From Candidatus Poribacteria bacterium (GTDB taxonomy: Bacteria; Poribacteria; WGA-4E; PCPOR2b), in contig OZ242326.1 in NCBI GenBank assembly GCA_965208325.1, positions 1,952,001 to 2,016,000 on the forward strand: DNA of 64,000 nt, written 5' to 3'. Position 1 is the first letter of the stretch; each line of letters opens with the position of its first letter. The position numbers were made by a program, and so were the translations under genes. Positions 3,577-63,500 of the stretch are shown here, piece after piece. The notes under the pieces were generated by a model. That model did no database searches. It was not told where the DNA came from and saw nothing but the letters and a program-made list of their open reading frames with translations.

Positions 3577-3782
3577 ATTTTTTCCCTTTTAATGTCTTTT
3601 GTGTAAAGCCGAATACCGATAAAACGCGTTGGAAACGTGAATGACGCGTTAAAGGTTAATGCGCATCTTTCCTGGTTAATTCAATGTTGATGTGTTGCCA
3701 TGATTTCTATACGCCCAAAAAATGTCTATTGCGCTCACAATTTGGGCGCTTATTCCCATAGTATACGTTAATCCGGTATTGG

Positions 3783-3844
3783 GCGCGGCAAGATGCCGCG
3801 CATACAAGATCTGACGTTTGTGCGCGGCAAGATGCCGCGCCTAC
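3783..3844 (-). repeat. Two REP-A copies (minus strand GTAG-GCGCGGC-ATCTT-GCCGCGC) downstream of RAYT
   Basis: Copies at 3783-3805 and 3822-3844 in the same orientation with a 16-nt linker. Confidence 0.9.
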
Positions 3845-3856
3845 AGGCCACGCGGT

Positions 3857-4342
3857 CTACTCCAGCTCAAATTTACACCACCAATACGGATAATCCTTTG
3901 CCAATTTGACTAGGCCATTCCGCACCGGGTTGTCATAACAATACCGTATAGTGTCATTCAACGCACCCTCATCCCGAACGGCATGGTCATAATACCCCTT
4001 TTGCCATACGGAACCAGCTTCATCAAGCAGCGCGTTAATCTTCTTCGCTGTGAAACTCTTGAAGGTATGCATGATGCGTGCTAGCGCTTGGTTGCACCCC
4101 AGTTGAACCACCGCATGAATATGGTCAGGCATTATTATAATACATATCCGCTTGATGCGTCCCTCGTTTTCAAGCCATTGGAACGCATCGAAAACGATTT
4201 GTGCGGCGTGGGAGCTCGAGAGTAAACGTCGTCGTTTGAATGTGACGGTTGTCAAAAAGTAATATGCGCCCGATATCGTGTGTCGGCCTTTGCGCAATTG
4301 AGGGTTTTTTCGATTTGGGATTGCGGTTATGGTAGTTGCCAT
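3857..4342 (-). mobile_element. rayT: REP-associated tyrosine transposase (RAYT/TnpA-REP, Y1 HUH family)
   Basis: LRKGR...YYFLTTVT, HUH motif MPDHIH, FKSFTA, WQKGYYDH, catalytic Tyr region YCYDNPVRNGL and DYPYW. Flanked on both sides by GTAG-hairpin REPs. Start placed at ATG 4342 because the longer ORF extends into REPs. Confidence 0.92.
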
Positions 4343-4363
4343 TGAATTATGTGTCGGGTCATT

Positions 4364-4426
4364 GCGCGGCAAGATGCCGCGCCTACGGAACGTGGTGGTG
4401 TACGCGGGGCAAGATGCCACGCCTAC
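4364..4426 (-). repeat. Two REP-A copies upstream of RAYT
   Basis: Copies at 4364-4386 and 4404-4426 with a 17-nt linker, in the same orientation as the downstream pair. Confidence 0.9.
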
Positions 4427-4538
4427 AAGGCTGAGGTTTGTGCTGATAAAACGCGTTGGAATCGTGAATGACGCGTTTAAAGTATATATTTTGTTGCACG
4501 ATTGGGACAGTCCTTTCGTTTCAGAAATCGAAAAAATG

Positions 4539-6828: not shown

Positions 6829-7146
6829 GCGCGGCAAGATGCCGCGCCTACGAGGTGTGGGGCGGTGCCATTCGCGCGGCAGGATGCCGCGCCTACGGGG
6901 TGTGGGGCGGTGCCATTCGCGCGGCAACATGCCGGGACTACAGCGTGTGGTGTGGTAAGCAAGGCGCGATGTCACCCCGGCAACGTGTGCTGCCACACGC
7001 ACGGCAAGATGCCGCGCCTACAGGGTGTGGCGCGGTGCCAAACGCGCGGCAAGATGCCGCGCCTACGAGGTGTGGTGTGGTAAGCAAGGCGCGATGTCAC
7101 CCCCGAAACGTGTGCTGCCAAACGCGCGGCAAGATGCCGCGCCTAC
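6829..7146 (-). repeat. REP-A direct-repeat array, 6 copies
   Basis: gcgcggcaagatgccgcgcctac variants separated by related 22-nt and about 57-nt linkers. Confidence 0.9.
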
Positions 7147-7170
7147 AGAATACGGTGGTGCAATTTTTGC

Positions 7171-9190: not shown

Positions 9191-9442
9191 GCGCGGCAAG
9201 ATGCACCGCCTACAGGGCCTGAGATTTGTGCGCGGCAAGATGCCCGCTTCCAGGACGTGGTGCCGCACGCAGCGAAAGATGCCGCGCTTACAGGGCCTGA
9301 GGTTTGTGCGCGGCAAGATGCCACGCCTACAGGACGTGGTGCCGCACGCAGCGAAAGATGCCGCGCCTACGGACGTGGTGTACACGCGGCTAGATGCACC
9401 GCCTACCAAGGTGGTGTACACGCGGCTAGATGCACCGCCTAC
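9191..9442 (-). repeat. REP-A direct-repeat array, 7 degenerate copies
   Basis: Period of about 36-40 bp with alternating linkers agggcctgagrtttgt and aggacgtggtgccgcac. Confidence 0.88.
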
Positions 9443-11698: not shown

Positions 11699-11881
11699 GC
11701 GGGGCAAGATGCCCCGCCTACAAGATGTCATGGCGAACGCGCGGCAAGATGCCGCGCCTACAAGATGCCGCAGCGCACGCGGAGTAAGATGCCTCGCCTA
11801 CAAGATGTCATGGCAAACGCGCGGCAAGATGCCGCGCCTACAGGACGTGGTGCCGCACGCGCGGCAAGATGCCGCGCCTAC
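11699..11881 (-). repeat. REP-A direct-repeat array, 5 copies at exact 40-bp period
   Basis: 23-bp REP plus 17-nt linkers. Includes the compensatory stem variant gcggggc-aagat-gccccgc. Confidence 0.9.
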
Positions 11882-11953
11882 AAGATGGCACGGCGCACGC
11901 GGGGCGGACACGTTTAGATAACGCGACCTTCACCAAGCTTGGTGATTTAGAAT

Positions 11954-15083: not shown

Positions 15084-15345
15084 TATTGATTTCTCCGTTG
15101 TGATGAATTGAAGACTATTACAGATTCGTTAGCGATTTTGCGATTTTCGCAGCATGGTTTCAAATATTATTTCGGCAGGACCGTAGAAAAATGTATGTCA
15201 ATATATTTTTCAAAATGCCCGACAACGTTAGGAGATTACCGCACTTAATCGGCTTAATGTTCATTATATCAAATATGCATTTGAGCGTCGAGAAAAATAT
15301 TGCGGCGAAATCGTGTTGAAACGTGGCAAGAATCTGCAGGCGCAC

Positions 15346-16615
15346 GCGGGGCAAGATGCCCCGCACACGGAGGGTAGCGACGTTCTATATGCCTGCCGCC
15401 CCGCGGGGGCTATAGGGCAGGTTTTTGATGTGTGAGGGCGGCTGGTTGTCGGGCTGAATGAAATATGCAATTGGAATGGAAAAAACAAGAGGATGGTTGG
15501 GGAATAGCGGCGGAGTTGGCGATTGGTAATGCATTGGGGATGGGTGAGGTTTTAAAAGCGTTGGGTTTCGCTACGTTCATTATATTTTGGACGTCGTTAG
15601 GCTTCCGAAGCGCAATGTAAGATTGTACGATATTTGGTGAAATCCGCTCTACCCAACCTACAAGAGCAACGAGTGCGGTGGTCGTGATTCGGAGATTGGT
15701 CCGACAGATACAGGCGATTGGAGGTTGAGGTGAAGACTATCGCCCTCCCTATTCGGTCGGTTGATCGTTGGGTTTCGCTACGTTCATTAGATTTTGGACG
15801 TCGTTAGGCTTCCGAAGCGCAATGTAAGATTGTACGATATTTGGTGAAATCCGCTCTACCCAACCTACAAGAGCTCCAGCAATGAGCGGGGCAAGATGCC
15901 CCGCCTACGGAGGGTGGCGACGTTCTATATGCCTGCCGCCCCGCGGGGGCTATAGGGCAGGTTTTTGATGTGTGAGGGCGGCTGGTTGTCGGGCTGAATG
16001 AATTATGCAATTTGGGATGCAAAAAACAAGAGGATTGTTGGGGAATAGCGGCGGAGTTGGCGATTGGTAATGCATTTGGGATGGGTGAGGTTTTAAAAGC
16101 GTTGGGTTTCGCTACGTTCAATTAGATTTTGGACGTCGTTAGGCTTCCGAAGCGCAATGTGAAATTGTACGTTATTTGGTGAAATCCGCTCTACCCAACC
16201 TACAAGAGCTGTGATTTTTGTGATTAAATGACAGGCTTTTGTGATTAAATGATGGGCTATGATTGATTTTAGTCATTTCGGTACATAATATACACAAAGA
16301 AGTGATTTACAATCGAGGCTAGGAAGCCTCTCCCACACACCGATGTGTCGATGCACAATGTTTGATAATCGAGCTTGATAGGGGCGCGGGAGGTTTTCAA
16401 GGCAGAAGACTGTAGGAAGACTATCGCCCTCCCTATTCGGTCGGTTGATCCCTCCTTATTCGGTCGGTTGATCGTTGGGTTTCGCTACATTCATTAGATT
16501 TTGGACGTCGTTAGGCTTCCGAAGCGCAATGTGAAATTGTACGTTATTTGGTGAAATCCGCTCTACCCAACCTACAAGAGCTCCAGCAATGGGCGGGGCA
16601 AGATGCCCCGCCTAC
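15346..16615. repeat. Composite multi-family REP mosaic (about 540-bp duplication; families A, G, D x4, B, F)
   Basis: A-type copies at 15346, 15886 and 16593. Split-REP D copies at 15560, 15767, 16101 and 16474. No credible CDS. Confidence 0.88.
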
Positions 16616-16738
16616 AGGATGTAGTGGCTCACTGGTGCTGTAAAACATGAATATACGAACAAGTTCTAGGATTTACGCTGCGAACCATCCCCGATGGTGA
16701 GCTTGGAATAAAATGTCCCGACAGGAAAGAATTTATGC

Positions 16739-18637: not shown

Positions 18638-19349
18638 AAACCGAGTTTTGAAGAAAAAACTCGGTTTCAAATAGGGGTCGCGATTCGGAGATTGCTCCTA
18701 CAGGGGCGATAGTTTTCTCCGGTTTTAATCTTGTCTTGATTCCCGACGCAAGCCGACCTACAAGAACTTTGCGGACGGCACACGGAGTGTGCCTGCTACT
18801 TTAGCGCGGCAAGATGCCGCGCCTACAAAGGAAATGGATGTGAGTGAAGCAAGATGCCGCGCCTACAAAGGAAATGGATGTGAGTGAAGCAAGATGCCGC
18901 GCCTACAAAGGAAATGGATGTGAGTGAAGCAAGGTGGAGCGGATACGGGGGAAGAAGACGGTTGAGATGCGGCGAATTTTGAAGAAACCGTTTGAAGAAA
19001 AAACTCGGTTTCAAATAGGGGTTGCGATTCGGAGATTGCTCCTACAGGGGCGATAGTTTTCTCCGGTTTTAATCTTGTCTTGATTCCCGACGCAAGCCGA
19101 CCTACAAGAACTTTGCGGACGGCACACGGAGTGTGCCTGCTACTTTAGCGCGGCAAGATGCCGCGCCTACAAAGGAAATGGATGTGAGTGAAGCAAGATG
19201 GAGCGGATACGGGGGAAGAAGACGGTTGAGATGCGGCGAATTTTGAAGAAACCGTTTGAAGAAAAAACTCGGTTTCAAATAGGGGTCGCGATTCGGAGAT
19301 TGCTCCTACGGCGGGTGGGTTTTGGATGAATCCGCTCTGCCCAACTTAC
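18638..19349. repeat. Composite REP mosaic (E-B-J-C-A units)
   Basis: Order: aaaccgagttttgaagaaaaaactcggttt (E), B, tcccgacgcaagccgacctac (J), acggcacacggagtgtgcctgctac (C), A. The unit is repeated about 2.5 times and contains internal 40-bp A repeats. Confidence 0.88.
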
Positions 19350-19639
19350 ACGAGCTCGCAAGTGCAGTGATTTAGATTGACGCGTACCTGCCCATTTGAT
19401 ATGCTATAATCTTATGTGAACACGTGAAAACCGGTGCATGCCGCATCATTCGCATCGCACCGTGGAAGCGGTTCAACAGTTGCAGCCGCGTCCCGGGCGA
19501 AGATGACAAACTGGGAATTTAGAACCCAAGAAAGATATTGTCCGCCAGCGGCGGCATCTCAATTACATTTGTCAATTCAGGATGCCGCGGCTAGGTTTAG
19601 AACTGAAAGGGGAAGTTCTGATTTTCAGGGGCATTGCGC

Positions 19640-20398
19640 TTAAAACTGTTCATAGACATCTTCGCGGTTATGGCCCCTACGACCGGGACACAATCGCTGC
19701 ATCTCCGGAGGCATACGTTCATACGTCTCGGGCCAGAGCGGTTGGTGGCCGCCTTCGTTCCAGTTGTTGAACCAGCGCGGGTAGTAAGCGATGTTAAGCC
19801 CGACGCGAATTTCGTCGGTAGTTGAATTGGGGCGAGCCATGTGATATAGACCGCTGTGCCACATCATAACGGAACCCGGCCTGCCCGTGACCGCCTTGAT
19901 TAACGGGCTATCGTGAGTTATGCTCGGCGGCGGCCCCTTGAGCCGGGAGCGATGGCTCATCGGTACAATTCCCGTTGCGCCATTTTCAACGGTGAAGTCA
20001 GTGAGCATCCAGATAGAATTTACCATCCACGCCACGTCCGGCACTTCAGCGAAATGTGCAGCGGAATCGACGTGCAGTCCTTGAGGGCCTGCTCCCGGCC
20101 ACGTTGGCTTGGAACAAGCCTCGGCAACACGACAGGTTTCTCCAAGAAAATGTCTGACTACGGCTACAATGTCTGGATGGCTGGCGCAGGTCCAGACCCT
20201 ATCGTCCAAGTTTAACATGCCAAACAGTGTTTGGTAGTATTTGTCGCCGGTGTTATAGCGCTGGTATTGGGGATCTGCGTGAATTTCCAAGAATCGCTCC
20301 GCCATGCTGCGAGCCATGTCTTCTGGAATGCGATCTTCTAGGACGCAGTAACCGCAATCATTCATTGAGTCAATTGCAGCTTTGATATCATCGTTCAT
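19640..20398 (-). CDS. Phytanoyl-CoA dioxygenase (PhyH) family Fe(II)/2OG enzyme
   Basis: GYCVLE, LHVD (HxD), WMLTDFTVENGATGIVPMSH, distal YH and Arg. Confidence 0.88.
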   Translation of the reverse strand: MNDDIKAAIDSMNDCGYCVLEDRIPEDMARSMAERFLEIHADPQYQRYNTGDKYYQTLFGMLNLDDRVWTCASHPDIVAVVRHFLGETCRVAEACSKPTWPGAGPQGLHVDSAAHFAEVPDVAWMVNSIWMLTDFTVENGATGIVPMSHRSRLKGPPPSITHDSPLIKAVTGRPGSVMMWHSGLYHMARPNSTTDEIRVGLNIAYYPRWFNNWNEGGHQPLWPETYERMPPEMQRLCPGRRGHNREDVYEQF

Positions 20399-20622
20399 GG
20401 AATTTGCGTTGCGCCTCCTAATGTTGTTGAAGATGTGACGTTTTTGCTAAGGTTTTGCGGAAGAAAATACTTCAAGTGGTATCATGACTTCGAGGAAATT
20501 ATAAACAATACGACAACTTCAGCAAAAACTCTTCCGTGAAATATGTTGCAATTATAGCAATTGGGTGACAATTTTGCAACAAAAAAGGATGGACGCGCGC
20601 AGAAGCTAATCGGACGGATATT

Positions 20623-21802
20623 TCTATTTACCTGCCGCCGCGTTGGGGCAATAGGGCAGGTTTTTGCCGTGTGAGGGCGGCTGGTTACCGGGCGCAATTT
20701 ATTGTGCGATTGGAATGGAAAACACAAGAGTGTTTCTGGGGATGAGCTGCGGCGTTGGTGATTGGTAATTCATTTGGGATGGGTGAGGTTTTTAAGGCAG
20801 AAGACTATCGCCCTCCCTATTCGGTCGGTTGATCGTTGGGTTTCGCTTCATTCATCGGATTTTGCACGCAGTTGGGATGGTGGTGCGGTTCGTTAAAATG
20901 GGCGTTTTTTGAATGAATCCGCTCTACCCAACCTACAAGCTGGGCTATGATTAAGCTCATGTAGGTTGGGTTAAGCGGTTTAAACGATAGTCGCGTAAAA
21001 TTTCGAATGGATAGTGTTATTTGAATATTTGCGGAAGTTGTTAAGGTGTAGCGAACCCAACGCTTTTGCGTTTAAGAAACCGAGTTTTGAAGAAAAAAAC
21101 CATAAAAAACTCGGTTTCAAAAAAAGTCGCGATTCGCAGATTGGTCCTACAGGATACAGGAGCTGTCTGAACTGTGATTTATATGATTAAATGATGGGCT
21201 ATGATTAAGGGAGGACATTATCATTCGGGATGGGTAAGGTTTTTAAGGCAGAAGACTATCGCCCTCCCTATTCGGTCGGTTGATCGTTGGGTTTCGCTTC
21301 ATTCATCGGATTTTGCACGCAGATAGGATGGTAGTGCCGTTCGTTTTGATGGGCGGTTTTTGAATGAATCCGCTCTACCCAACCTACAAGCTGGGCTATG
21401 ATTAAGCTCATGTAGGTTGGGTTAAGCGGTTTAAACGATAGTCGCGTAAAATTTCGAATGGATAGTGTTATTTGAAAATTTGCGGAAGTTGTTAAGGTGT
21501 AGCGAACCCAACGCTTTTGCGTTTAAGAAACCGAGTTTTGAAGAAAAAAACCATAAAAAACTCGGTTTCAAAAAAAGTCGCGATTCGGAGATTGGTCCTA
21601 CAGGATACAGGAGCTGTCTGAACTGTGATTTATATGATTAAATGATGGGCTATGATTAAGGGAGGACATTATCATTCGGGATGGGTAAGGTTTTAAAAGC
21701 GTTGGGTTTCGCTTCATTCATCGGATTTTGCACGCAGTTGGAATGGTGGTGCGGTTCGTTAAAATGGGCGTTTTTTGAATGAATCCGCTCTACCCAACCT
21801 AC
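20623..21802. repeat. Composite REP mosaic, 451-bp tandem unit containing inverted pairs of split-REP D
   Basis: D at 20835, 21286 and 21701, inverted D at 20961 and 21412, plus E and B modules. The first about 170 bp are homologous to 15386-15555. Confidence 0.88.
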
Positions 21803-21850
21803 AAGAGCTATCGCCCGTTCTGGGTTTTGGCTGTATGAGGGATTTGAATT

Positions 21851-22690
21851 ATGACTTATTCTATGACTGACGAGCAGCGATTTACCTTCGATTTGAAGGG
21901 TTGGCTGATGATTCCGTCCGTGTTGCAACCGGACGAAATTAGAGAGATTAAGGAATTTCTGGATGCCTTAGAGTTCAACCCGGAAACGCTTCCTGAGCGG
22001 GATAGGCATGTTTGCGGGGGCGCATGTTCCCAACTGCTAGATCACCCCGTGGTAGTGGGTGTGTTAAACGAGATTATCCTTTCACCGGGTTCGCTGCGGG
22101 ACGGAGACGTACCCGCAGACACGGGTGACGAGGCAAAACCTTACGGTTTCCGCTGCGACGGTTGGCATCTTGCCCGCCGAACCTACGATCCGAACCGCAG
22201 CGCTTCGGATGCGCCGCCATCACCGCCGCATAACGGCGGTGTGGAGATGTATCCAACGCACAGTTTCAATGTCTTTAACGGGCGCATCTCTTCGCCGGTG
22301 ACCCGGGTGGTGTGGGAGGTGAACCCTGTGAAGAAATGGATGGGGGGCACGCTGTTTATGTCGGGGAGCCACAAGAGCAACTTCACCATCCCACCGGAAC
22401 ACCGCCAGACTGACAGCCCATTGTATGAAACCTATGGGTGCCCGGCGGGTACGGTGCTGTTCTTTTCGGAATCGGTTTGCCATGGCGGTCCACATTGGCT
22501 GGATCCGGAACATGACCGTATGGCGTTGTTTTTCCACTATATGCACGCCTCGTCAAAGTGGCATTACGGGGCGCCGCCACACGAAACCGTGATGGCGATG
22601 CCGCCGAAGCGGCGGAGCCTATTTCGCGGGGTATGGATGGGCGTCGGCCAGACGAATGACGAGTATTCGAAGGAGAACCGCGCAATTTGA
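21851..22690 (+). CDS. PhyH-family Fe(II)/2OG enzyme with HxG metal motif
   Basis: EQRFTFDLKGWL, LLDHP, PHNGG, GGTLFMSGSHKSNF, PAGTVLFFSESVCHG and DR. Confidence 0.82.
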   Translation: MTYSMTDEQRFTFDLKGWLMIPSVLQPDEIREIKEFLDALEFNPETLPERDRHVCGGACSQLLDHPVVVGVLNEIILSPGSLRDGDVPADTGDEAKPYGFRCDGWHLARRTYDPNRSASDAPPSPPHNGGVEMYPTHSFNVFNGRISSPVTRVVWEVNPVKKWMGGTLFMSGSHKSNFTIPPEHRQTDSPLYETYGCPAGTVLFFSESVCHGGPHWLDPEHDRMALFFHYMHASSKWHYGAPPHETVMAMPPKRRSLFRGVWMGVGQTNDEYSKENRAI

Positions 22691-22814
22691 CAACGCATGA
22701 ACGATTCAGCCGCGAGCACATCCAGCGTGCAGGTAGGTTGCTCGTACGTTCATTAGCACATTTTGGCCGGGATATTAATGTTTAGCATAATGCGCAGCAT
22801 TCCTTGAGGACGCG

Positions 22815-24158
22815 ATGAAAAAAGTTCGTATCGGCGGCGGTGCAGGTTTTTCAGGAGACAGAATTTCGCCCGCTGTTGAGTTGGTGGAATCCGGTGATAT
22901 TGATTACATTGTATTCGAGTGCCTCGCTGAACGAACCATAATGCTTGCCCAGCAACGTAAACGCCTTGACCCGTCGAAGGGATACGACCCTTTATTTGAA
23001 AGGCGTATGCGCGCCATACTCGAATCGTGCGCGAAGAAGAACATAAAGATTATTACGAATATGGGAGCGGCAAACCCAAGAGCAGCGGGCAATTTAGTGG
23101 TGCGTTTGATGCAAGAAATGGGGATTGGGGACCTCACGACAGCGGTTGTCAGCGGCGACGATATACTCGACGAGGTGAAACGCGGGCAGCTCCAACTTCA
23201 TGATTTGGACCTCAACCCACAGGAAATTGAAGAACATGTAGTGTCGGCAAATATCTATCTCGGATCAGCCCCCATTTTGGAGGCGTTGCGACAGGGGGCA
23301 GATGTAGTGATTACCGGACGTGTCGCGGATCCCTCGCTTTTTGTAGCCCCCCTACTGTATGAATTTGGCTGGGCGAATGATGATTGGAACCGGGTGGGGC
23401 GCGCGGTCATGTTAGGGCATCTGATGGAGTGCGGCTGCCAAATCAGCGGCGGCTACTATGCCGATCCGGGTTACAAGGATGTTGAAGATCTCGTACGCTT
23501 GGGCTATCCTATCCTTGAGGTTCATGAGGACGAACGCGCCTACATCACAAAGGTGCCCGGCAGCGGAGGAGAGGTCAGCGTAGGCACATGCAAAGAACAA
23601 CTGCTATATGAAGTCCGCGACCCTTCACGCCTAATCACACCGGACGCAGTTTCAGATCTGACCGATGTCCGGTTTGAACAGTCGGCGCCCAACCGCGTGC
23701 AGGTCTTCGGCGGAAGCGGGCGACTGCAACCGAACAAACTTCGGGTTCTGCTGTGTGTTCAAGAGGGCTACATCGGCGAAGGTGAAATCTCCTATGGAGG
23801 CCCCGGCGCTTACGAACGCGCCCAGCTCGCTGCGTCATGTGTGCGCGAATGGCTAGAATCTGAATGCGTAGAACTCAGTGAACTGCGGGTGGATTTAATT
23901 GGCGTTAATCATCTTTATCAGAGTGCTTCCCTACAGTTACAAAGTCCGCCGCCGGAAGTTCGATTACGCGTCAGCGGGCGCGCAGGCACACGGCGTCATG
24001 CGGAAAGCGTGGGGGAAGAGGTGGAAAGCTTATTTCTCAACGGACCCGCCGGCGGCGGCGGGGCGCGCAAATCTGTTCGGGAAGTTACTCCAATGTATAC
24101 GGCCTTTATCGATCGGGGCGCAGTTCAAACAAAGATTGAATTACTCACGCCGAATTAA
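22815..24158 (+). CDS. Acyclic terpene utilization AtuA family protein (DUF1446)
   Basis: RIGGGAGFSGDR, FECLAERT, TNMGAANP, ITGRVADPS, GHLMECG, EQLLYEV and NGPAGGGG. Confidence 0.88.
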   Translation: MKKVRIGGGAGFSGDRISPAVELVESGDIDYIVFECLAERTIMLAQQRKRLDPSKGYDPLFERRMRAILESCAKKNIKIITNMGAANPRAAGNLVVRLMQEMGIGDLTTAVVSGDDILDEVKRGQLQLHDLDLNPQEIEEHVVSANIYLGSAPILEALRQGADVVITGRVADPSLFVAPLLYEFGWANDDWNRVGRAVMLGHLMECGCQISGGYYADPGYKDVEDLVRLGYPILEVHEDERAYITKVPGSGGEVSVGTCKEQLLYEVRDPSRLITPDAVSDLTDVRFEQSAPNRVQVFGGSGRLQPNKLRVLLCVQEGYIGEGEISYGGPGAYERAQLAASCVREWLESECVELSELRVDLIGVNHLYQSASLQLQSPPPEVRLRVSGRAGTRRHAESVGEEVESLFLNGPAGGGGARKSVREVTPMYTAFIDRGAVQTKIELLTPN

Positions 24159-24323
24159 CTTCGCGCCGACAGACGCGGACATAGGGTAAGTTGCAATCCG
24201 CCAGAATAGGACTTTCCGGTTGCATGCGTGAAATAGGCGCGAGGCTAGCGTGGGTTGATTTCAACGACCGGGTGCGGCACATGGGCCGATGCATCGCGCG
24301 ATTAAAAGGAGGAACAAAAATAG

Positions 24324-25481
24324 ATGGAGACTCTAGGCGTAGCAATGATTGGCTATAAGTTTATGGGAAAGGTGCACTCGAGGGCGTACCGTGATGCTAT
24401 CGTGCTCTTTGAACCGAAAACCAGTCCTGAACTTCGGGTAATTTGCGGGCGCGACGAATCGGGAGTCCGGGACGCCGCCGACCGCTACGGGTGGCCGGAA
24501 TACAGCACCAACTGGGAGGAGGTTGTGGGGCGGGATGACATTCAAATCGTCGACATTTCGGTGCCGGGAGACATACACCGCCCGATCGCGCTTGCGGCGG
24601 CGCAGCAGGGAAAACATATCTTGTGCGAAAAGCCGTTGGCGAATTCACTGTCAGACGCGCGAGAAATGGCTCAAGCGGTTGAAGCGGCGGGCATAGTCAA
24701 TATGGTCAGTTTTAACTACCGCCGAGTGCCCGCGGTTGTATTGGCGCGCGAGCTGATTGAAGCGGGCGAAATTGGCGAAATCTACCACTGGCGAGCGTGC
24801 TGGTTGTCAGACTGGGCGACAAGCCCTTACATTCCCATTACTTGGCGATTCCAACGCGAACGGGCAGGCAGCGGTTCGCTCGGCGATCTCGGATCTCACC
24901 TGATAGATTTGGCGCATTACCTAATTGGGCCGATCGAAAAAGCAATTGGATTAACCGAAACTTTCATTAAGGAACGGCCCCTGCTTCCTACTGAGTGTAA
25001 ACCGGGAGTCACTACAGGTTCGGTAAACGTGGATGACGGCGCGCTATTTCTTGCGCGATTTGAGAACGGTGCAATCGGCAGCTTCGAGGCGACCCGAGTG
25101 GCGGGCGGCAGCCGCGAACGGTTCATATTCGAGATTAACGGCAGCCGCGGCAGCGTGTATTTTGACTTTGAACGGCTGAATGAGCTGCGATATTTTTCCT
25201 GGCGTGAACATGCGCGCACACAAGGCTATCGAACCATCTTCGTCGGCCAGAGCGAACACCCTTACGGGAGGCGCTGGTGGCCGCCCGGACTGGGGATAGG
25301 CTACGATGCTTCATTTGTGCACACGGTTTACGACTTCCTCAACGGCGTCGCCGAGAACAAATCTCCGTCACCCGATTTCCGCGAAGCGGTTGGGGTTCAG
25401 GCTGTGCTTGAGGCGGTCGGACACTCGATTGAAGAAGAGCGTTGGGTGAGGGTCTCAGATGTTCTCAACGGGACGCAGTAA
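24324..25481 (+). CDS. Gfo/Idh/MocA family oxidoreductase
   Basis: IGYKFMGKVH, KHILCEKPLA, FNYRRVPA and GSLGDLGSHLID. AGGAGG RBS. Confidence 0.92.
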   Translation: METLGVAMIGYKFMGKVHSRAYRDAIVLFEPKTSPELRVICGRDESGVRDAADRYGWPEYSTNWEEVVGRDDIQIVDISVPGDIHRPIALAAAQQGKHILCEKPLANSLSDAREMAQAVEAAGIVNMVSFNYRRVPAVVLARELIEAGEIGEIYHWRACWLSDWATSPYIPITWRFQRERAGSGSLGDLGSHLIDLAHYLIGPIEKAIGLTETFIKERPLLPTECKPGVTTGSVNVDDGALFLARFENGAIGSFEATRVAGGSRERFIFEINGSRGSVYFDFERLNELRYFSWREHARTQGYRTIFVGQSEHPYGRRWWPPGLGIGYDASFVHTVYDFLNGVAENKSPSPDFREAVGVQAVLEAVGHSIEEERWVRVSDVLNGTQ

Positions 25482-25685
25482 ACGACAGAAGAGTATAGAA
25501 ACGGCTGCATTATTCCATTGAACGCCGCGGGTGCGCCTACCGCAATAGACAAAGGGTAAACGGTTTTTGAGTTTTGCCGTCCTAAATAGAGGGCATTCAA
25601 AGGACGATGCCTGCGCAAATGGCGTGTTCTACGCATAGCATATTTTGCAGCGCATAAACTCAAACTCTAAACGAGGTGAAAAGCA

Positions 25686-26141
25686 ATGAAGCGATTTAGT
25701 TTCCAAACATCATGTATTGGATTCGTTCTAGTATGTATGCTGGGAATAGGAATATCCGTAATTGCAATAGGCCAACAAGATGCTTCCCCTAAGTACACTA
25801 TTCTTGTACTCGGCAGATTGCACCTGACCCCGAAAGGAGACGCGGAGATTGCCGAAAAACTCATGGTAGAGAAACTGCTGCCTGCTGCCAAAAGGATTGA
25901 GGGTTTAAAAATTACGGCGCTGAAGCGGGTGCAGATGCCGGGGCCATCAAGTCAAATGCGGACCAAACAGCCCGATTTCATAATGATGGCTGAAGTTTCG
26001 GATTTGACCGTTCTTGCCAAACTGTGGGCGGCACCGACAGATGATTTGGAAGAGTATGGGAAACAGATGAAGATACAAGCTGGCGCACCGAAATTTGAAG
26101 TGTATCAAATCTTGGAAGGGTCAGCAGACGGAGTAGAGTAA
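25686..26141 (+). CDS. Hypothetical exported protein
   Basis: GAGG RBS and N-terminal hydrophobic signal. No family recognised. Confidence 0.65.
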   Translation: MKRFSFQTSCIGFVLVCMLGIGISVIAIGQQDASPKYTILVLGRLHLTPKGDAEIAEKLMVEKLLPAAKRIEGLKITALKRVQMPGPSSQMRTKQPDFIMMAEVSDLTVLAKLWAAPTDDLEEYGKQMKIQAGAPKFEVYQILEGSADGVE

Positions 26142-26147
26142 AAGATT

Positions 26148-26762
26148 GTGACATCGAATGAGAATAAAATTGCCGCAGCGGCGCTTGATACGGAAAAGCA
26201 GATAACAGATCTTTTTATCGCTCAATGTGAGACACCTGTGGATTTAGAGGAGATAAATCTAAGTCGATTAACACCGTTTCAACGTGCGCTATTGGTCACG
26301 GACGGGACAGTTACGCGGTTTCTCGAAGCTTACACCCTTTCGCCGGTCAAGATTGTGCTGCTCAAGCAGGAGATGGAAACCCTACCTGCCAATCACGTGT
26401 GGCTCAAAGCAAAAAAAGGCACAGAGGTAATTCGACGTCAGGTTTCGCTGCAAACGCTGAATTGCACAGCCCAACCGCCGACTATCCATACCTATGCGAC
26501 GTCCCTCATTGTGCTGAGCCGTACTCCGACGATTATCAGAGAAGGTTTAGCACTTCAGAGCGATGGGTTAGGGACGCTGCTGCAGCGAAGCGGCCTGGAA
26601 ACGCGCAGAGATTTACTATGGTGCGGGGTGGAACGCCCGGAAGATCTACCGGCAGGTCTCGCTAATTTGGAGGAAACAGCGTTTCTTACCCGCACGTATC
26701 GCATTGTAGCTGATGGAAAACCGATAATATTGATAAACGAGCGGTTTCCGATGTGTTCCTAA
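26148..26762 (+). CDS. Chorismate pyruvate-lyase/UTRA-fold protein (DUF98-like)
   Basis: FQRALLVTDGTVTRFLEAY, R.V.L, LG.LL....LETRR and RTYRI....P.ILINERFP. Confidence 0.78.
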   Translation: MTSNENKIAAAALDTEKQITDLFIAQCETPVDLEEINLSRLTPFQRALLVTDGTVTRFLEAYTLSPVKIVLLKQEMETLPANHVWLKAKKGTEVIRRQVSLQTLNCTAQPPTIHTYATSLIVLSRTPTIIREGLALQSDGLGTLLQRSGLETRRDLLWCGVERPEDLPAGLANLEETAFLTRTYRIVADGKPIILINERFPMCS

Positions 26763-28573
26763 GGGTGGAAGGGTGGCGATGATGGGTTTGTGTGGTCGAG
26801 GCAATGTACAAAATTAGTCTGAAATGTGATTTGTGTGATTGAAAATCGAGGCTGGGAAGCCTCTCCCACACACCGGTGAGTCGATGCATAATTTTTTATA
26901 ATCGAGGTTGATTGGGGCGCAGGAGGTTTTTAAGGCAGAAGACTGTAGGAAAACTATCGCCCTCCCTATTCGGTCGGTTGAACGTTGGGTTTCGCTCAGT
27001 TGATCCTATTTCGCCGCGTGATTCCACCAATTACGTTACTTCAGCATTGGCGGGGCAAGATGCCCCGCCTACATGGGGTGGGGGCACACGTAGGGCAAGA
27101 TGCCCGCCTTCGGCGTGTGGTGGCGCACACGGGGCAAGGAAAATCTGTGAGTTTAAGAAACCGAGTTTTGAAGAAAAAACTCGGTTTTAAATACGGGTCG
27201 CGATTCGGAGATCGCTCCTACGGCGGGTGAAGGATTGTTGGAAGAATGGAAGGATGGAAGATTGGCGATGATGGGTTTGTGTGGTCGAGGCAATGTACAA
27301 AATTAGTCTGAAATGTGATTTGTGTGATTGAAAATCGAGGCTGGGAAGCCTCTCCCACACACCGGTGAGTTGATGCATAATTTTTGATAATTGAGCTTGA
27401 TTGGGTTGCGGAAGGTTTTTAAGGCAGAAGACTGTAGGAAAACTATCGCCCTCCCTATTCGGTCGGTTGATCGTTGGGTTTCGCTCAGTTGATCCTATTT
27501 CGCCGCGTGATTCCACCAATTACGTTACTTCAGCATTGGCGGGGCAAGATGCCCCGCCTACATGGGGTGGGGGCACACGTAGGGCAAGATGCCCGCCTTC
27601 GGCGTGTGGTGGCGCACACGGGGCAAGGAAAATCTGTGAGTTTAAGAAACCGAGTTTTGAAGAAAAAACTCGGTTTTAAATACGGGTCGCGATTCGGAGA
27701 TCGCTCCTACGGCGGGTGAAGGATTGTTGGAAGAATGGAAGGATGGAAGATTTGCGATGATGGGTTTGTGTGGTCGAGGCAACTTACAAAAATAGTCTGA
27801 ACCGTGATTTGTGTGATTGAAAATCGAGGCTGGGAAGCCTCTCCCACACACCGGTGAGTCGATGCATAATTTTTTATATTCGAGGTTGATTGGGTTGCGG
27901 GAGGTTTTCAAGGCAGAAGACCTTAGGAAAACTATCGCCCTCCCTATTCGGTCGGTTGAACGTTGGGTTTCGCTCAGTTGATCCTATTTCGCCGCGTGAT
28001 TCCACCAATTACGTTACTTCAGCATTGGCGGGGCAAGATGCCCGCCTACATGGGGTGGTGGCACACGTAGGGCAAGATGCCCGCCTTCGGCGTGTGGTGG
28101 CGCACACGGGGCAAGGAAAATCTGTGAGTTTAAGAAACCGAGTTTTGAAGAAAAAACTCGGTTTTAAATACGGGTCGCGATTCGGAGATCGCTCCTACGG
28201 CGGGTGAAGGATTGTTGGAAGAATGGAAGGATGGAAGATTGGCGATGATGGGTTTGTGTGGTCGAGGCAAGGTACAAAATAGTCTGAAATGTGATTTGTG
28301 TGATTTACAATCGAGGCTGGGAAGCCTCTCCCACACACCGGTGAGTCAATACATAATTTTTGATAATCGAGCTTGATTGGGTTGCGGGAGGTTTTTAAGG
28401 CAGAAGACTGTAGGAAAACTATCGCCCTCCCTATTCGGTCGGTTGATCCTCCGCTATTCGGTCGGTTGATCGTTGGGTTTCGCTCTGTGTATATTGACAG
28501 AAGCATCTTTAGAAATGCTGAACGTCAATCGCTGCCTGAACCGTATTGGGATTATTCGCTCTACCCAACCTAC
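26763..28573. repeat. Composite REP mosaic, 489-bp tandem unit in about 3.5 copies
   Basis: Unit order: F (tcgaggctgggaagcctctcccacac), K (actatcgccctccctattcggtcggttga), D left arm, A, A, E, B. Ends with a complete D at 28472-28573. Confidence 0.92.
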
Positions 28574-28758
28574 AAGAGCTTTCAAACAGATTCTAAATAT
28601 TGAAACTCGTTCGTGGTTCGTTATGCCTGATTATAACACGGAGAAGTTTGTAAAATGAAACAAATCGCGGCACTATAGTGAGCTAAGGTATGAGTTTCCG
28701 CTGTGTATTACGAGAATTTTAGGGTTGACTGTGTTATTTTTGCAGCAGGAGGACATTG

Positions 28759-33480: not shown

Positions 33481-33517
33481 TTAGGTATACGGCGTGTGCG
33501 GTAGGTGAAGGAAGATT

Positions 33518-33601
33518 ACGGCACACGGAGTGTGCCTACTACTATATGCGGGGCAAGTTGCCCCGCGTACGGTAAGGGGCGGGGCGCGATGCCGCGGTTA
33601 C
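33518..33601 (-). repeat. REP C-A-A cluster between operon genes
   Basis: acggcacacggagtgtgcctactac followed by two degenerate A copies. Confidence 0.8.
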
Positions 33602-33624
33602 GGTAGGTGGGGGCAGATTTTGTA

Positions 33625-38249: not shown

Positions 38250-38840
38250 CAAACGGTGATAGTGGACGATACACTTGTGTATGGGGGGATTCAGAGCCGT
38301 TCCAGCCCGCAATGGAATTCCGAGAAGAAACTGTGGGAATGGTGGTATTTCGGCCGGCATTTGTACTAGGCGGTCTCCGATGACGGGGAGCATTGGAAAA
38401 AGCCGGCCATGGGGTTGTACGAATTCGGCGGTTCAAGGGACAACAACATCGCATTCGACCCGGAAAATATGGGGCAGGGAATCCCTTTTCACGTTGTGCG
38501 CGACTAGACCGATCCGGATCCGCGGCGCCGTTACAAAGGACTGTTCAACGCTAACGGCCGCCGCCTCGCCGTGTCCCCGGACGGATTTGACTGGAGGCTC
38601 CACGACTCGCCGCCCATCCCCTGCCAAGACGAGTCCCAGTTTACGCATGACATCGAGTCGAGCCAGTTTCTAGCAATGGTCAAGTTGAGTACGGAATGGG
38701 GACGTTCCGTTTGGCTCTCCACCAGTTCCGATTTTAATTCCTTCACCGAACCCCAGCTAATCTTTCACACCGACGAAATTGACCAGGAGAACGGAAGCCG
38801 GCGAGTCCGGAAAATATTCGAAGACCCGGCTTCGGGGTGA
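38250..38840 (+). pseudogene. Fragment of a five-bladed beta-propeller glycoside-hydrolase-like gene with two in-frame TAG stops, truncated by a REP array
   Basis: One frame reads IQSRSSPQWNSEKKLWEWWY...LY*AVSDDGEHWKKPAMGLYEFGGSRDNNI...VVRD*TDPDPRRRYKGL...AVSPDGFDW...DES...GRSVWLSTSSDF. TAG codons at 38367 and 38505. Confidence 0.78.
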
Positions 38841-40825
38841 CGGCACTCGGCGTGGACCTGCTACTTTGAGCGCGGCAAGATGCCGCGCCTACGGTAAGGG
38901 GAAAGGGGACGCGACTACGACAGGGGGTAAAGGGGATTGACGCCGTGACTACGATGGGGGTAAAGGGTTAGAGCCGCAAATACAGTCGGTAAATGCGGGG
39001 AAGGAAGCAACGGATACGGGGTGACGGAACACGGAGTGGGCATGCTACTTTAAGCGCGGCAAGATGCCGCGCCCACGGTAAAGGTAAAGGGGAAAGAGGC
39101 CGTGACTGCAGTAGGGATATGCGGGGGAACAAGCAACGGATACGGGGTGACGGCACACGGCGTGGGCATGCTACTTTGAGCGCGGCAAGATGCCGCGCCT
39201 ACTACAGGGGGTAAAGGGGAAAGACGCCGTGACTACGATAAGGGTAATAGGGAAAGATGCCGCGGATACGACGTGACGGAACACGGAGTGGGCATGCTAC
39301 TTTGAGCGCGGCAAGATGCCGCGCCTACAATAAAGGTAAAGGGGAAAGAGGCCGTGACAACGATGGGGGTAAAGCGGATAGAGGATGCGACTACGACAGG
39401 GGGTAAAGCGGAAAAAGCCGTGACTACGAGGGGGATAAAAGGGAATAAGGCAACGGATACGGTGTGACGGCATACGGGGTGGGAATGTTACTTTGAGCGC
39501 GGCAAGATGCCGCGCCTACGGTAAGGAGAAAGACGCCGTGACTACGAGGGGGGTAAAGGGGAAAGACGCCGCGACTACGATAAGGGTAATAGGGAAAGAT
39601 GCCGCGGATACAGTAGGGATATGCGGGGAGGAAGCAACGGATACGGTGTGACGGCATACGGGGTGGGAATGTTACTTTGAGCGCGGCAAGATGCCGCGCC
39701 TACAATAAAGGTAAAGGGGAAAGACGCCGCGACTACGATAAGGGTAATAGGGAAAGATGCCGCGGATACAGTAGGGATATACGGGGAGGAAGCAACGGAT
39801 ACGACGTGACGGAACACGGAGTGGGCATGCTACTTTAAGCGCGGCAAGATGCCGCGCCTACGGTATAGGTGAAGGGGAAAGAAGCCGCGACTACGACAGG
39901 GGGTAAAGGGGGAAGAGGACGCGAATACAGTAGGAATATCCAGAGGAAAAGGCAACGGCTACGACGAGACGGCACACGGAGTGGGCATGCTACTTTAAGC
40001 GCGGCAAGATGCCGCGCCTACGAGGGGGGTAAAGGGGAAAGATGCCGTGACTACGACAGGGGGTAAAGGGGGAAGAGGACGCGAATACAGTAGGAATATC
40101 CAGGGGAAAAGGCAACGGCTGCGCCGTTGCGGCACACGGAGTGGGAATTCTATTTTGAGCGCGGCAAGATGCCGCGCCTACGGTAAGGTAAAGGGGAAAG
40201 ACGCCGTGACAACGATGGGGGTAAAGCGGATAGAGGATGCGACTACGACAGGGGGTAAAGGGGATAGAGGACGCGAATACAGTAGGTTAATGCGGGGGAA
40301 GAAGCAACGGATACGACGTGACGGCACACGGCGTGGGCATGCTACTCTGAGCGCGGCAAGATGCCGCGACTACGGTAAGGGTGAAGGGGAAGAGGACGTG
40401 ACTACGATGGGGGTAAAAGGGAATGAGGACGCGACTACGGTTAGGGTAAAGGGGAAAGACACCGTGACTACGATGGAGGTATAGGGGAAAGAGGACGCGA
40501 ATACAGTAGGTTAATGCGGGGGAAGAAGCAACGGATACGACGTGACGGCACACGGCGTGGGCATGCTACTTTAAGCGCGGCAAGATGCCGCGCCTACGGT
40601 AAGGGTAAAGGGGAAAGATGCCGCGACTACGAAGAGGGTAAATGGGAAAGAGGACGCGACTGCAGTAGGTAAATGCGGGGGAAGTGGCAACGGATACGGG
40701 GTGACGGCCCACGGAGTGTGAATTCTACTTTGAGCGCGGCAAGATGCCGCGCCTACGGTTAGGGTAAAGGGGAAAGAAGCCGCACCTACGACAGGGGTAA
40801 AGGGGAACGAGGCGCGACGACGGTA
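38839..40825. repeat. 2-kb purine-rich REP array: about 12 C-A doublets plus GGGGTAAAGGGGAAA half-REP mini-units
   Basis: gacggcacacggagtgggcatgctac-tttga-gcgcggcaagatgccgcgcctac recurs every 120-225 bp, with about 31-bp ggggtaaaggggaaagacgccgtgactacga units in between. Confidence 0.92.
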
Positions 40826-49258: not shown

Positions 49259-49288
49259 TGGGTGACGGAACAATTCTATGCGTTTAAA

Positions 49289-50181
49289 AAACCGAGTTTT
49301 GAAGAAAAAACTCGGTTTTAAATTGAATAGGTTTTTGTAGGTTCAAAAGCGTTGGGTTTCGCTTCAATCATCGGATTTTCGTACGCGATAAAGTTTACAG
49401 GGCGGTTCGTTTTAATGGGCGATTTTTGGATGAATCCGCTCTACCCAACCTACAAAAACTTGATCCCGGGCTACCGTGTGTGGGTAGTGCGGTTGCACAA
49501 AAAGTTACGGCACACGGAGTGCGCATACTACTTTGCGCGGCAAGATGCCGCGCCTACAATGGGAATGGATGCGGCGCGAGTTTCGGCGAATACCTTGGAA
49601 ATTTGCGGGTTGAGATGGCGCCGGGTTACGACGTGCAGCGGGGGGTCCTGCGATTACGGAAATGGTTACGGCACACCGAGAATATTGAAGAAACCGAGTT
49701 TTGAAGAAAAACTCGGTTTTGAATTTAATAGTTTTTTGTAGGTTGGGTAGAGCGGATTTGGTAATTGATGTGTAGTGTTTTGTGGGCAGTACCTACGTTG
49801 GGATTGATGGGTTAATGTAATAGCGGAGCGAAACCCAACGTTTTTGGAGCGTTGGAATAATAGAACGATAGACACCAAAACGATTGGATAAAGGAAATTC
49901 ATTGAGAGGATTTGGATTCCGGAGCGGTGTGTGGTATTTAGAAGTTCATAGGGTTGCGGGAGGTTTCAAAAGCGTTGGGTTTCGCTTCAATCATCGGATT
50001 TTCGTACGCGATAAAGTTTACAGGGCGGTTCGTTTTAATGGGCGATTTTTGGATGAATCCGCTCTACCCAACCTACAAAAACTTGATCCCGGGCTACCGT
50101 GTGTGGGTAGTGCGGTTGCACAAAAAAGTTACGGCACACGGAGTGTGCCTACTACTTTGCGCGGCAAGATGCCGCGCCTAC
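49289..50181. repeat. Composite REP mosaic (E-D-C-A-E-invertedD-D-C-A)
   Basis: D at 49351 and 49974, inverted D at 49738, and C-A doublets near 49507 and 50131. Confidence 0.88.
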
Positions 50182-50259
50182 AATGGGAATGGATGTGAGC
50201 AATATTTATGCACAATTTTATCTGAAAATTTGATATAATATTTGGTTAAGCCCGATTGT

Positions 50260-55719: not shown

Positions 55720-57037
55720 GAAGCCAAGTTTTGAAGAAAAAACTCGGCTTCAAACAAAGCCCGCGATTCGGAGATGGATGCTGCGGGATACAGCAGTTGT
55801 CTGAACTGTGATTTATTTGATTGAATGGTGGGCTATGATTGTGGGAGCACATAATGATTCGGTGTTGAAGCGTAGGCGGATTGGCTACCGCTTACAACAA
55901 CTCGGACTTCGCCAATTGGTGTTTGGGACAGTGTTCGTGTTGGGTAATCATTTGGGATGGGAGAGGTTTTAAAAGCGTTGGGTTTCGCTCCATTCATCGG
56001 AATTTGCACGCGGTGAGGTTGACGAAGCGATTCGTATTGATGGGCGGTTTTTGGCTGAATACGCTCTACCCAACCTACAAGAACTGTCTGAACTGTGATT
56101 TATTTGATTGAATGATGGGCTATGATTGTGGGAACACATAATGATTCGGTGTTGAAGCGTAGGCGGATTGGCTACCGCTTACAACAACTAGGACTTCGCC
56201 AATTGGTGTTTGGGACTTGTTCGTGTGGGGTAATCATTTGGGATGGGAGAGGTTTCAAAAGCGTTGGGTTTCGCTCCATCCATCGGAGTTTGCACGCGGT
56301 AAGGTTGACGAAGCGATTCGTGTTGATGGGCGGTTTTTGGCTGAATACGCTCTACCCAACCTACAAAAACTGTCTGAACTGTGATTTTTGTGATTGAATG
56401 GTGGGCTATGATTGTGGGAACACATAATGATTCGGTGTTGAAGCGTAGGCGGATTGGCTACCGCTTACAACAACTAGGACTTCGCCAATTGGTGTTTGGG
56501 ACTTGTTCGTGTGGGGTAATCATTTGGGATGGGAGAGGTTTTAAAAGCGTTGGGTTTCGCTCCATTCATCGGAATTTGCACGCGGTGAGGTTGACGAAGC
56601 GATTCGTGTTGATGGGCGGTTTTTGGATGAATCCGCTCTACCCAACCTACAAGAACTGTCTGAACTGTGATTTATTTGATTGAATGATGGGCTATGATTG
56701 TGGGAGCACATAATGATTCGGTGTTGAAGCGTAGGCGGATTGGCTAACGCTTACAACAAATAGGATTGCGTCAATTGGTGTTTGGGACGGTGTTCGTGTT
56801 GGGTAATCATTTGGGATGGGAGAGGTTTCAAAAGCGTTGGGTTTCGCTATATCCATCGGAATTTGCACGCGTTGAGGTTGACGGGGCGATTGGTGTTGAT
56901 GGGCGGTTTTTGGCTGAATCCGCTCTACCCAACCTACAAGAGCTAAATCGCAGAATTTTGCTGCATTTAAGAAACCGAGTTTTGAAGAAAAAAAACTCGG
57001 TTTCAAATAAGGGTCGAGATTTGGAAATCGCTCCTAC
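55720..57037. repeat. Composite REP mosaic, 286-287-bp tandem unit x4 bracketed by E-B modules
   Basis: D at 55977, 56263, 56549 and 56836. Each unit also has gaactgtgatt...gatgggctatgatt and the imperfect hairpin tgttgaagcgtaggc-ggatt-ggctaccgcttacaaca. Confidence 0.92.
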
Positions 57038-57097
57038 AGATGATAGCGGTTCGACAGATTATTGAGAGTTAGCTTGTTGATTTAGAAAGGAACGTGC

Positions 57098-63383: not shown

Positions 63384-63500
63384 AATTTATATTTGATTTC
63401 CAATCCGGGGAGGCAGCAGCCGCCAAATTTGTGATAATGTCCGGTAGTTTTAAACGAAATTTAACGATGACGTGGAGTGATTCGCTGTTTCACAGCGAAT

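Follow-up and report, generated by a model that had tools for sequence, protein, structure and literature searches.

Why should short sequences of unrelated families stand next to one another, in the same order and the same direction, at many separate places in a bacterial genome? The question is raised by a 64,000-nucleotide stretch of DNA from a Candidatus Poribacteria bacterium (G000 C1:1952001-2016000, in a genome of 4.71 Mb that forms a single contig with 49% G+C). This whole stretch is referred to here as the window, and coordinates refer to it unless another genome position or locus is named. Its intergenic regions carry chains of short modules (A to F, J, K and M), together with one gene for a REP-associated tyrosine transposase (RAYT), REP standing for repetitive extragenic palindromic sequence. 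The first-pass annotation of this DNA proposed that distinct hairpin families are concatenated in a stereotyped order, either by several RAYT paralogs that target each other's repeats or by one promiscuous enzyme guided by the motif GTAG, and set against this the copying of one ancestral composite as a whole. The results described below suggest that the arrays are probably a mosaic resembling bacterial interspersed mosaic elements (BIMEs), to which several RAYT lineages, a few fixed composites, a strand rule and tandem amplification have all contributed; the preferred order of the families is explained only in part. They are drawn directly from the anatomy of the arrays, from statistics, from the pairing of RAYTs with families by flanking position, from differences between sister genomes and from precise insertions or deletions (indels) of single modules. 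Three congeners (G001, G002 and G003) were available for comparison; G002, a sister species, is syntenic with G000 across the whole window, the main blocks being 87-96% identical. To our knowledge, REP/RAYT systems have been studied almost only in Proteobacteria, with an inverted doublet as the unit.

Mismatch scans of the whole genome, with overlaps removed, recovered the modules far beyond the window: 283 copies of A (at most four mismatches), 114 of B, 79 of C, 72 of F and 216 of K (at most five), 103 of E (at most six), and 71 of M (at most four), an additional module defined in this analysis. D is a single element of about 103 nt, with two arms lying 71 nt apart and then a conserved tail, AAGARCT; its head arm, GTAGGTTGGGTAGAGCGG, is present in 268 copies. 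The families comprise 71-298 copies each, except J, which was found five times (at most three mismatches). The copies are mostly intergenic, only 40 of 478 oriented chains lying within a long open reading frame (ORF), and the genes flanking the arrays are ordinary metabolic genes. Folding with DNA parameters, scored as z against shuffled sequences, bore out the claim that the modules are hairpins for A (-5.8), E (-10.7), C (-3.1) and F (-2.1), and for the long D element, which folds as a long stem (-11.6 kcal/mol); the hairpin of B is weak, and J, K and M folded no better than shuffled sequences. With five copies and no hairpin, J was rejected as a family and treated as a local variant. A short palindromic hairpin with a GTAG head is present in A, C and D, and weakly in B, but not in the seeds of E, K and M; the F seed begins with GTGT, and its matches in the genome mostly start with GTGG and some with GTAG. 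The stem of E is rich in AT, pairs perfectly over 12 bp and has T runs on either side.

The recurring adjacencies stand up to inspection. E is followed by B at 18638, 21077 (where E has an 11-nt insert), 27158, 55720 and 56972; C by A at 18774, 33518, 38840-40734 (12 pairs) and 49507; and K by D at 15735, 20804, 26955 and 28419. Their recurrence at separate loci holds to a lesser extent: 18638-28573 comprises only three intergenic loci, each a tandem array of one composite block (about 344, 451 and 489 bp), so many of the recurrences there are tandem copies rather than separate loci. To keep tandem copies from inflating the result, each ordered pair was counted once per locus (267 loci in all). 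The directional asymmetry was then 109/211 (0.517), against 0.193±0.030 when order was shuffled within chains and 0.170±0.026 when labels were shuffled genome-wide, and none of 1000 shuffles in either control reached the observed value. The stereotyped order is, thus, beyond chance. Genome-wide, 476 of 564 adjacent pairs are co-oriented when separated by a gap of at most 80 (564 of 702 for a gap of at most 150), and within the shorter gap E precedes B 23 times and follows it twice, with similarly one-sided counts for C>A (20 vs 2), D>B (15 vs 0), D>C (12 vs 0), D>E (14 vs 4) and M>F (9 vs 0). Chains with at least two families number 152, compared with 60.9±6.4 expected from random placement in an assumed 3500 intergenic slots. 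The preferred order is broadly colinear and cyclic: M F K D E B C A.

A colinear order of this kind might reflect one or a few long ancestral composites that were copied in full and then lost parts by deletion, modules never having been joined independently. The junctions of five pairs are indeed fixed: K>D with a gap of 1 (26 of 33 instances, 23 loci), E>B with a gap of 9 and a spacer close to YAAATRAGG (20 of 23, 16 loci), C>A with a gap of 3-5 (20 of 20, 8 loci; TTT at the start in 17 of 20), M>F with 43-48 nt (9 of 9, 4 loci) and F>D with 64 nt (7 of 7, 2 loci). Amplification in whole blocks, and the resemblance of the G002 unit at the 18-kb locus to the 489-bp unit of the 27-kb locus, point the same way. 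The remaining junctions do not: D>B has eight unrelated spacers at 8 loci, D>K nine junction classes at 11 loci, D>E five at 7, D>C four at 7 and M>K five at 5. Modules stand alone in 359 of 511 chains, different families occupy the orthologous sites of G002, and the families have separate RAYTs and unequal phyletic spreads, C being near-absent from G001 and G003 and D present in all four genomes. Comparison among paralogous units of one array also revealed precise indels of single modules. A 37-nt K block lies between AAG and CGTTGGG in the unit at 21248 and is absent at 21699, and two units at 4.2021-4.2025 Mb of the genome have a 24-nt F-like hairpin, bordered by TTTATCG and GGAGG, that a third unit at 4.2028 Mb lacks. 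Since the junctions of D with B, E, C and K vary by locus and single modules come and go precisely, whole-composite copying explains part of the pattern (E-B, C-A, K-D, M-F-D and the tandem arrays) and not all of it; as the entire explanation it is very unlikely.

The enzymes point to family-specific mobilization. RAYT-A is the only RAYT of the window, as had been noted, and lies between A repeats (Table 1). A custom RAYT profile found three RAYT-like ORFs among the 28,642 six-frame ORFs of the genome, each with a different flanking family (A, E or G), and PF01797 matched two of them, RAYT-A and RAYT-E; a tblastn search with relatives, combined with the custom profile over the same ORFs, added only RAYT-G and no further RAYT. 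RAYT-E (3.32 Mb; NF047646 74.4 bits, below the cut-off of 80) is 26% identical to RAYT-A and has four E copies on one side and one on the other. RAYT-G (genome positions 3696883-3697512; 210 aa; NF047646 53.8 bits, below the same cut-off) lies inside long arrays of GTAGGGG-type 'G' repeats arranged as inverted doublets; REP-like hairpins are found in a stretch of about 40 residues inside this ORF, after one of its HuH and Tyr motifs and before the other, and the frame stays open there. HuH and Y-x3-N motifs are visible in the translations of the RAYT genes.

The other families are paired with enzymes elsewhere. In G002, one RAYT-like gene, which scores 21 bits with PF01797 and so falls short of the cut-off of 23, lies between C copies and a second RAYT, 58% identical to RAYT-A, between F copies; the RAYTs of G001 and G003 each lie between D-type elements, and G003 also has a truncated RAYT-A homolog. 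Candidatus Poribacteria assemblies contain the genes most closely related to RAYT-A (55-69% identity). B-like repeats flank three of these loci; in two others (L015, L017) the RAYT is flanked on both sides by A-type repeats in inverted orientation, and in another (L016), where the contig ends within the gene, an A-type repeat is present upstream only. An ortholog of RAYT-E in a different family (G026) is 72% identical and lies 39 nt from an E copy, and the RAYT-E query found none in G001, G002 or G003. Somewhere in the clade, a group of sponge symbionts, each major hairpin family thus has an enzyme of its own, as a REP family would; G000 keeps three of these enzymes. The proposal of several RAYT paralogs consequently holds at the level of the clade, the targeting of each other's repeats being conjectural, and C, F, D and B, the RAYTs of which are found only in sister genomes, are orphans in G000.

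The alternative form of the first proposal, in which RAYT-A, as one promiscuous GTAG-guided enzyme, mobilizes all GTAG-headed families in trans and builds mixed cassettes, found no support and is unlikely. It would accommodate a genome with three RAYT-like ORFs for at least nine families, the GTAG heads of the orphans B, C and D, the 268 copies of D without a RAYT-D, the 55-58% mutual identity of RAYT-A and the F- and B-type enzymes, and the precise indels of orphan families (K, F-like) inside young-looking arrays. Each orphan family has, however, its own flanked RAYT in a sister genome, and the E, K and M seeds, which lack GTAG, follow the same rules of orientation and order. Copy numbers also argue against it. 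In G000, G001, G002 and G003, respectively, A has 252, 4, 26 and 9 copies, its intact cognate RAYT being in G000, and E has 83, 4, 27 and 11, with its RAYT in G000; C has 63, 1, 41 and 0, and F 53, 6, 50 and 6, both with their cognate RAYT in G002. The expansions specific to G000 are, thus, limited to A and E, families with a resident RAYT, and C and F remain near their G002 numbers. The excess of A is not merely tandem growth, since A occupies 74 separate loci in G000. The family is present in 18 of 30 relatives with its strands balanced, compared with 35 forward and 217 reverse copies in G000. D had been predicted to peak in the genomes that carry RAYT-D, and it did not: the head arm of D, counted with a search pattern derived from G000 and, thus, biased, has 268 copies in G000 and 250 in G002, against 100 in G001 and 122 in G003, the two genomes with its cognate RAYT. 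These counts speak against the claim that abundance always tracks the enzyme; copy numbers track resident enzymes in part only.

A comparison of orthologous intergenic regions, of the kind suggested in the first-pass annotation, showed that the sister species differ in module content in all 13 repeat-bearing regions compared, and that G000 is the richer in 12 of them. G002 has none of the tandem amplifications of the three composite blocks in 18638-28573. At the site orthologous to 33.5 kb, G000 has C-A-A only, and G002 has, exactly there, its C-flanked RAYT-like gene; G000 33474-33610 lacks a unit of about 700 bp (A, C, RAYT-like gene, inverted C) present in L010 15438-16282 of G002, an alignment that fits a deletion between direct C copies.

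The modules also obey a strand rule. In the window, 123 of 126 are on the minus strand, irrespective of family or of the direction of neighbouring genes. Across the genome, chain orientation is correlated with repeat-masked local GC skew (Spearman -0.58, p = 2e-5, 46 bins), with 78 plus and 210 minus chains in bins of positive skew and 115 plus and 75 minus in bins of negative skew. The same is seen between convergent or divergent genes (11+/69- where skew is positive, 50+/22- where it is negative). Module strand also differs with gene context, 82+/65- between two plus-strand genes and 36+/103- between two minus-strand genes, and in a logistic model the coefficient of skew was -0.94 and that of gene direction +0.76. 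The use of skew as a proxy for fork direction is supported by a modest tendency of long ORFs to run with it (1564 vs 1244). An attempt to place origin and terminus from cumulative GC skew gave a minimum at 3.13 Mb and a maximum at 4.62 Mb, with sign changes throughout and no replichore map, so local masked skew was used instead. Transcription as the sole cause of orientation was rejected, both because skew predicts strand in convergent and divergent contexts and because the A arrays are on the minus strand between minus-strand genes (6.8-11.9 kb) as well as between plus-strand genes (33-50 kb). A replication-linked orientation bias has been described for IS200/IS605 elements, to which RAYTs are related, and attributed to single-stranded DNA at the lagging-strand template in the part of that account dealing with orientation (PMC3971601). 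No statement about a replication-linked orientation of REPs was found in the literature searched.

The association with gene direction is one of the observations that would be expected if the modules were functional elements selected by the host (terminators, mRNA-stabilizing hairpins, or binding sites for nucleoid proteins or gyrase), their order reflecting function rather than mobility. The E stem with its T runs resembles a two-way terminator, and such functions have been reported for E. coli REP/BIME sequences in the relevant section of PMC2817692. Against this stand the complete turnover at orthologous sites, although the surrounding blocks are syntenic and closely similar, the variation from one to four units at the same site, the absence of any match to Rfam at gathering thresholds over the entire window, and an orientation that follows GC skew even between convergent or divergent genes. 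Host selection is, therefore, a highly improbable explanation for the order of the modules.

In the RAYT-based mosaic that we favour, each module would be a separate REP-type family, and three processes would jointly give the recurring adjacencies. First, families would be mobilized by cognate single-copy RAYTs (Y1 HuH transposases acting on single-stranded DNA), of which RAYT-A, RAYT-E and RAYT-G are the residents, the C-, F-, D- and B-type enzymes surviving only in sister genomes. Second, a few fixed composites (E-9 nt-B, C-3 to 5 nt-A, K-1 nt-D and M-F-(K)-D) would spread as units, and other families would pile up independently in the same intergenic hot spots. Their common direction would arise if the strand of insertion or survival were set by the replication fork, as in IS200/IS605, with the direction of flanking genes as a second, weaker influence. 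Third, whole composite blocks of 114-489 bp would recently have been amplified in tandem at individual loci, probably by unequal recombination or slippage.

Several observations weigh against this interpretation. D is abundant in G000 and G002, where no RAYT-D was found, so that its counts do not follow the enzyme. No RAYT flanked by K or M was seen, and these two modules are not hairpins. The preferred order is accounted for neither by piling up in hot spots nor by the strand rule, and some transitions, counted by locus, run the opposite way (B>D 4, A>K 9, A>E 5). Flanking-gene direction also predicts orientation (odds ratio 3.6), GC skew is patchy, with no origin or terminus placeable, and fork direction is, thus, represented by local skew and a modest ORF bias. 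The strand with the GTAG heads is complementary to the G-rich one, a polarity opposite to that expected from the IS608 model of IS200/IS605, in which the lagging-strand template carries the active strand; RAYTs may act on the opposite strand, or excision may preferentially remove those copies that have the 'active' orientation. Array copy numbers come from one assembly, short-read contigs breaking at the array edges. Finally, no movement has been observed, and the mobility of the modules is deduced from comparison alone.

One way in which the order itself might be explained is tentative and, on balance, doubtful. Hairpins, whatever their family, would be inserted singly beside an existing hairpin, and excised precisely, on a single strand that the fork determines. 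This would give polarized stacks in which order corresponds to the succession of RAYT lineages gained and lost: D, K and F early, and A last, after RAYT-A had arrived as a 38-bp-bracketed unit. If this were true, the arrays would be a readable history of transposase turnover and the first case of replication-oriented REP insertion.

The arrays of the window are listed in Table 1. They include tandemly amplified composite blocks of 114-489 bp. On either side of the 489-bp array, contigs from four runs (X1, X4, X5, X6) extend over the unique sequence and end at 26803 and 28455. As they stop at the array edges, they neither confirm nor contradict its 3.5 copies.

Table 1. Module arrays, RAYT-A and associated repeats in the window, with the state of the orthologous site in G002 where available.
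Feature	Position	Strand	Details	G002
37/38-bp direct repeat, left copy	3618..3654	+	brackets the RAYT-A REPtron	
Two A repeats just 3' of the RAYT-A stop	3783..3845	-	GTAG strand is the coding strand	
RAYT-A, REP-associated tyrosine transposase	3857..4345	-	NF047646 130.3 bits (cut-off 80), PF01797 46.2 bits	
Two A repeats upstream of RAYT-A	4364..4426	-	direct orientation, as downstream pair	
37/38-bp direct repeat, right copy	4445..4482	+	brackets the RAYT-A REPtron	
A-only head-to-tail array	6829..7148	-	6 copies	2 copies
A array	9191..9442	-	6-7 copies, periods 36-40 and 79	
K, then five A copies	11699..11905	-	40-nt period	
Mixed cluster A..D-B-K-D-A..D-M-F-K-K-D-A	15343..16619	-		only M-F..B
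Composite E-B-J-C-A(-A-A)	18638..19310	-	~2.5 repeats, unit ~344 bp; includes 40-nt x3.1 array of 3' half-A, 100% identity	
Tandem block K-D-(inverted D arm)-E-B-M	20770..21810	-	451 bp x2.1, 97% identity, plus third partial copy without K	single D arm
Tandem block F-K-D(left arm)-A-E-B	26761..28581	-	489 bp x3.5, 96% identity, ends K-D	~150 bp (M-F..D arm)
C-A-A	33518..33600	-		RAYT-like gene between C repeats
Twelve C-A pairs interleaved with 33-nt half-A units	38840..40822	-	periods 126-192	
E-D-C-A .. E-(inverted D) .. D-C-A	49284..50186	-		
E-B-M, then (D-M), then E-B	55720..57039	-	(D-M) in 286-bp unit x4	aligns as one 286-bp unit, annotated M-D-M-D-B
A plus 91 nt of locally unique sequence	63500..63928	-	x3.8, 114-bp period	91 nt once, no A

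The unit inside the 37/38-bp direct repeats measures about 790 bp and consists of the RAYT-A gene and four A copies, the bracketing repeat being a small hairpin-containing sequence. G002 has one copy of this repeat (L009 8959-10703), interrupted by a 2-kb element that carries two DUF1670 genes (202 and 212 bits). The site has the appearance of a hot spot for insertions, and the arrival of RAYT-A there may have been that of one whole unit. The gene adjoining RAYT-E (L002 1946-2917; about 3.322 Mb in G000) encodes WYL and WCX domains (73 and 81 bits).

Module variants were also recorded. A has two stem forms related by a compensatory pair, GCGCGG...CCGCGC and GCGGGG...CCCCGC (for example, at 4404, 11699 and 15883), the second being the form listed in every row shown for relatives from other genera. 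Tandem half-A units, consisting of the loop, the right arm and CTAC plus a spacer, are found at 18809-18933 and 38896-40822; they comprise the 40-nt units repeated 3.1 times at 100% identity and many 33-nt units with GCCGCGACTAC, and the duplication junction is in or near the hairpin loop. A CRISPR-like reading of the arrays in which A copies alternate with 17-nt spacers was rejected, the repeat being 23 nt and the spacers, at 13-22 nt, too short and mutually alike (78-100% unit identity); Cas genes were not searched for. In E, the 11-nt insert lies in the loop region (21077-21117) and is present in both copies of the 451-bp block, and at 18980-19012 the left arm is replaced. In contigs from four sponge-metagenome runs, the bins containing the E hairpin (27155-27187 and 28132-28164) had a summed word depth of 2,000-27,500, compared with 12-24 in the unique flanks, so that E, or a sequence very close to it, is plentiful elsewhere in the DNA of these samples; loose contig ends at this hairpin lead into unrelated AT-rich sequence. 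Inverted doublets occur as well, as in C'.50.C and D5'.71.D3'.28.D3.71.D5.

The four complete genomes, from one poribacterial genus, have different RAYT subsets (A/E/G; C/F; D; D and a truncated A), and the repeat families persist. They represent a natural experiment on how the numbers of a repeat rise in the company of its transposase and how it lasts when the enzyme is missing. If the head-to-tail, skew-linked orientation reflects replication, the mobility of REPs, like that of IS200/IS605, would be tied to the fork. In practice the arrays are a hazard too: short-read assemblies break there.

Among known systems, the Neisseria intergenic mosaic elements (NIMEs), in which dRS3 repeats bracket RS units, form intergenic arrays of many short repeat families in recurring combinations, as in Poribacteria. 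Unlike the poribacterial arrays, they are organized by one 20-bp inverted repeat and are not known to be linked to a RAYT.

The E. coli REP/BIME system, with its TnpA-REP REPtron (Nunvar 2010, PMC2817692; Quentin 2018, PMC6006769; Ton-Hoang 2012 as cited there), resembles the present one, as far as the relevant parts of these papers go, in its short GTAG-headed palindromes (present here in some of the families), its single-copy Y1 transposase between its own repeats, its recurring linker motifs and its tandem reiteration. As described, the REPs of a BIME are clustered, other motifs lie between them, and the basic modules are reiterated head to tail (PMC2817692, in the section concerned). Recurring linkers and tandem reiteration are found in G000 as well, but not the alternating REPs: E. 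coli BIMEs have regularly spaced REPs of alternating orientation from one family (Y, Z1, Z2), whereas the pairs in G000 are predominantly co-oriented and their families mixed, and the flanks of RAYT-A are direct rather than inverted.

The presence of several REP families per genome, with one RAYT per family, has already been described (PMC6006769; PMC3733652, in the passages on families), as have orphan families and the loss of REPtrons by deletion (the corresponding passages of PMC3733652). Stenotrophomonas maltophilia, Rhodopirellula baltica and Pseudomonas fluorescens are alike in having several REP families, each with its own transposase (Di Nocera 2013, PMC3733652); no account of ordered head-to-tail arrays of mixed families was found there, the expressions 'same orientation' and 'head-to-tail' being absent from the paper, and the phylum here is Poribacteria. 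In the literature searched, supplements (with possible REPtron lists) apart, nothing was found on ordered, co-oriented arrays that combine families from different RAYT lineages, or on REPs in Poribacteria. The REPIN-RAYT system of Pseudomonas (Bertels & Rainey 2011, PMC3116915) is similar, in the aspects that its account covers, in its non-autonomous hairpins that need a vertically inherited single-copy RAYT and in a copy number tied to the presence of that RAYT. The REPIN unit is an inverted doublet that forms a long hairpin and replicates as such; in G000 doublets are a minority (61 of 302 multi-module clusters are mixed-strand) and single co-oriented hairpins dominate, so that the arrays do not conform to the REPIN type.

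IS200/IS605 elements (IS608, ISDra2; Gomez 2014, PMC3971601) are similar, in the features described for them there, in their Y1 HuH enzyme, in the direct orientation of their subterminal hairpins, in being excised and inserted precisely with no duplication of the target, and in a fork-relative orientation bias. They differ in that an IS transposase gene moves together with its end hairpins and is present in several copies, whereas each RAYT type in G000 is single-copy and the hairpins would move without the gene, and also in the sign of the skew bias, which in G000 is opposite to the IS608 prediction for the GTAG strand. Given the 37/38-bp direct repeat that brackets it, a one-off move of the whole RAYT-A unit is possible. 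In common with REPtron systems, G000 has RAYT-type Y1 HuH genes flanked by their own repeats, a high and mostly intergenic copy number of repeats, and a single RAYT-like ORF for each of the three flanking families.

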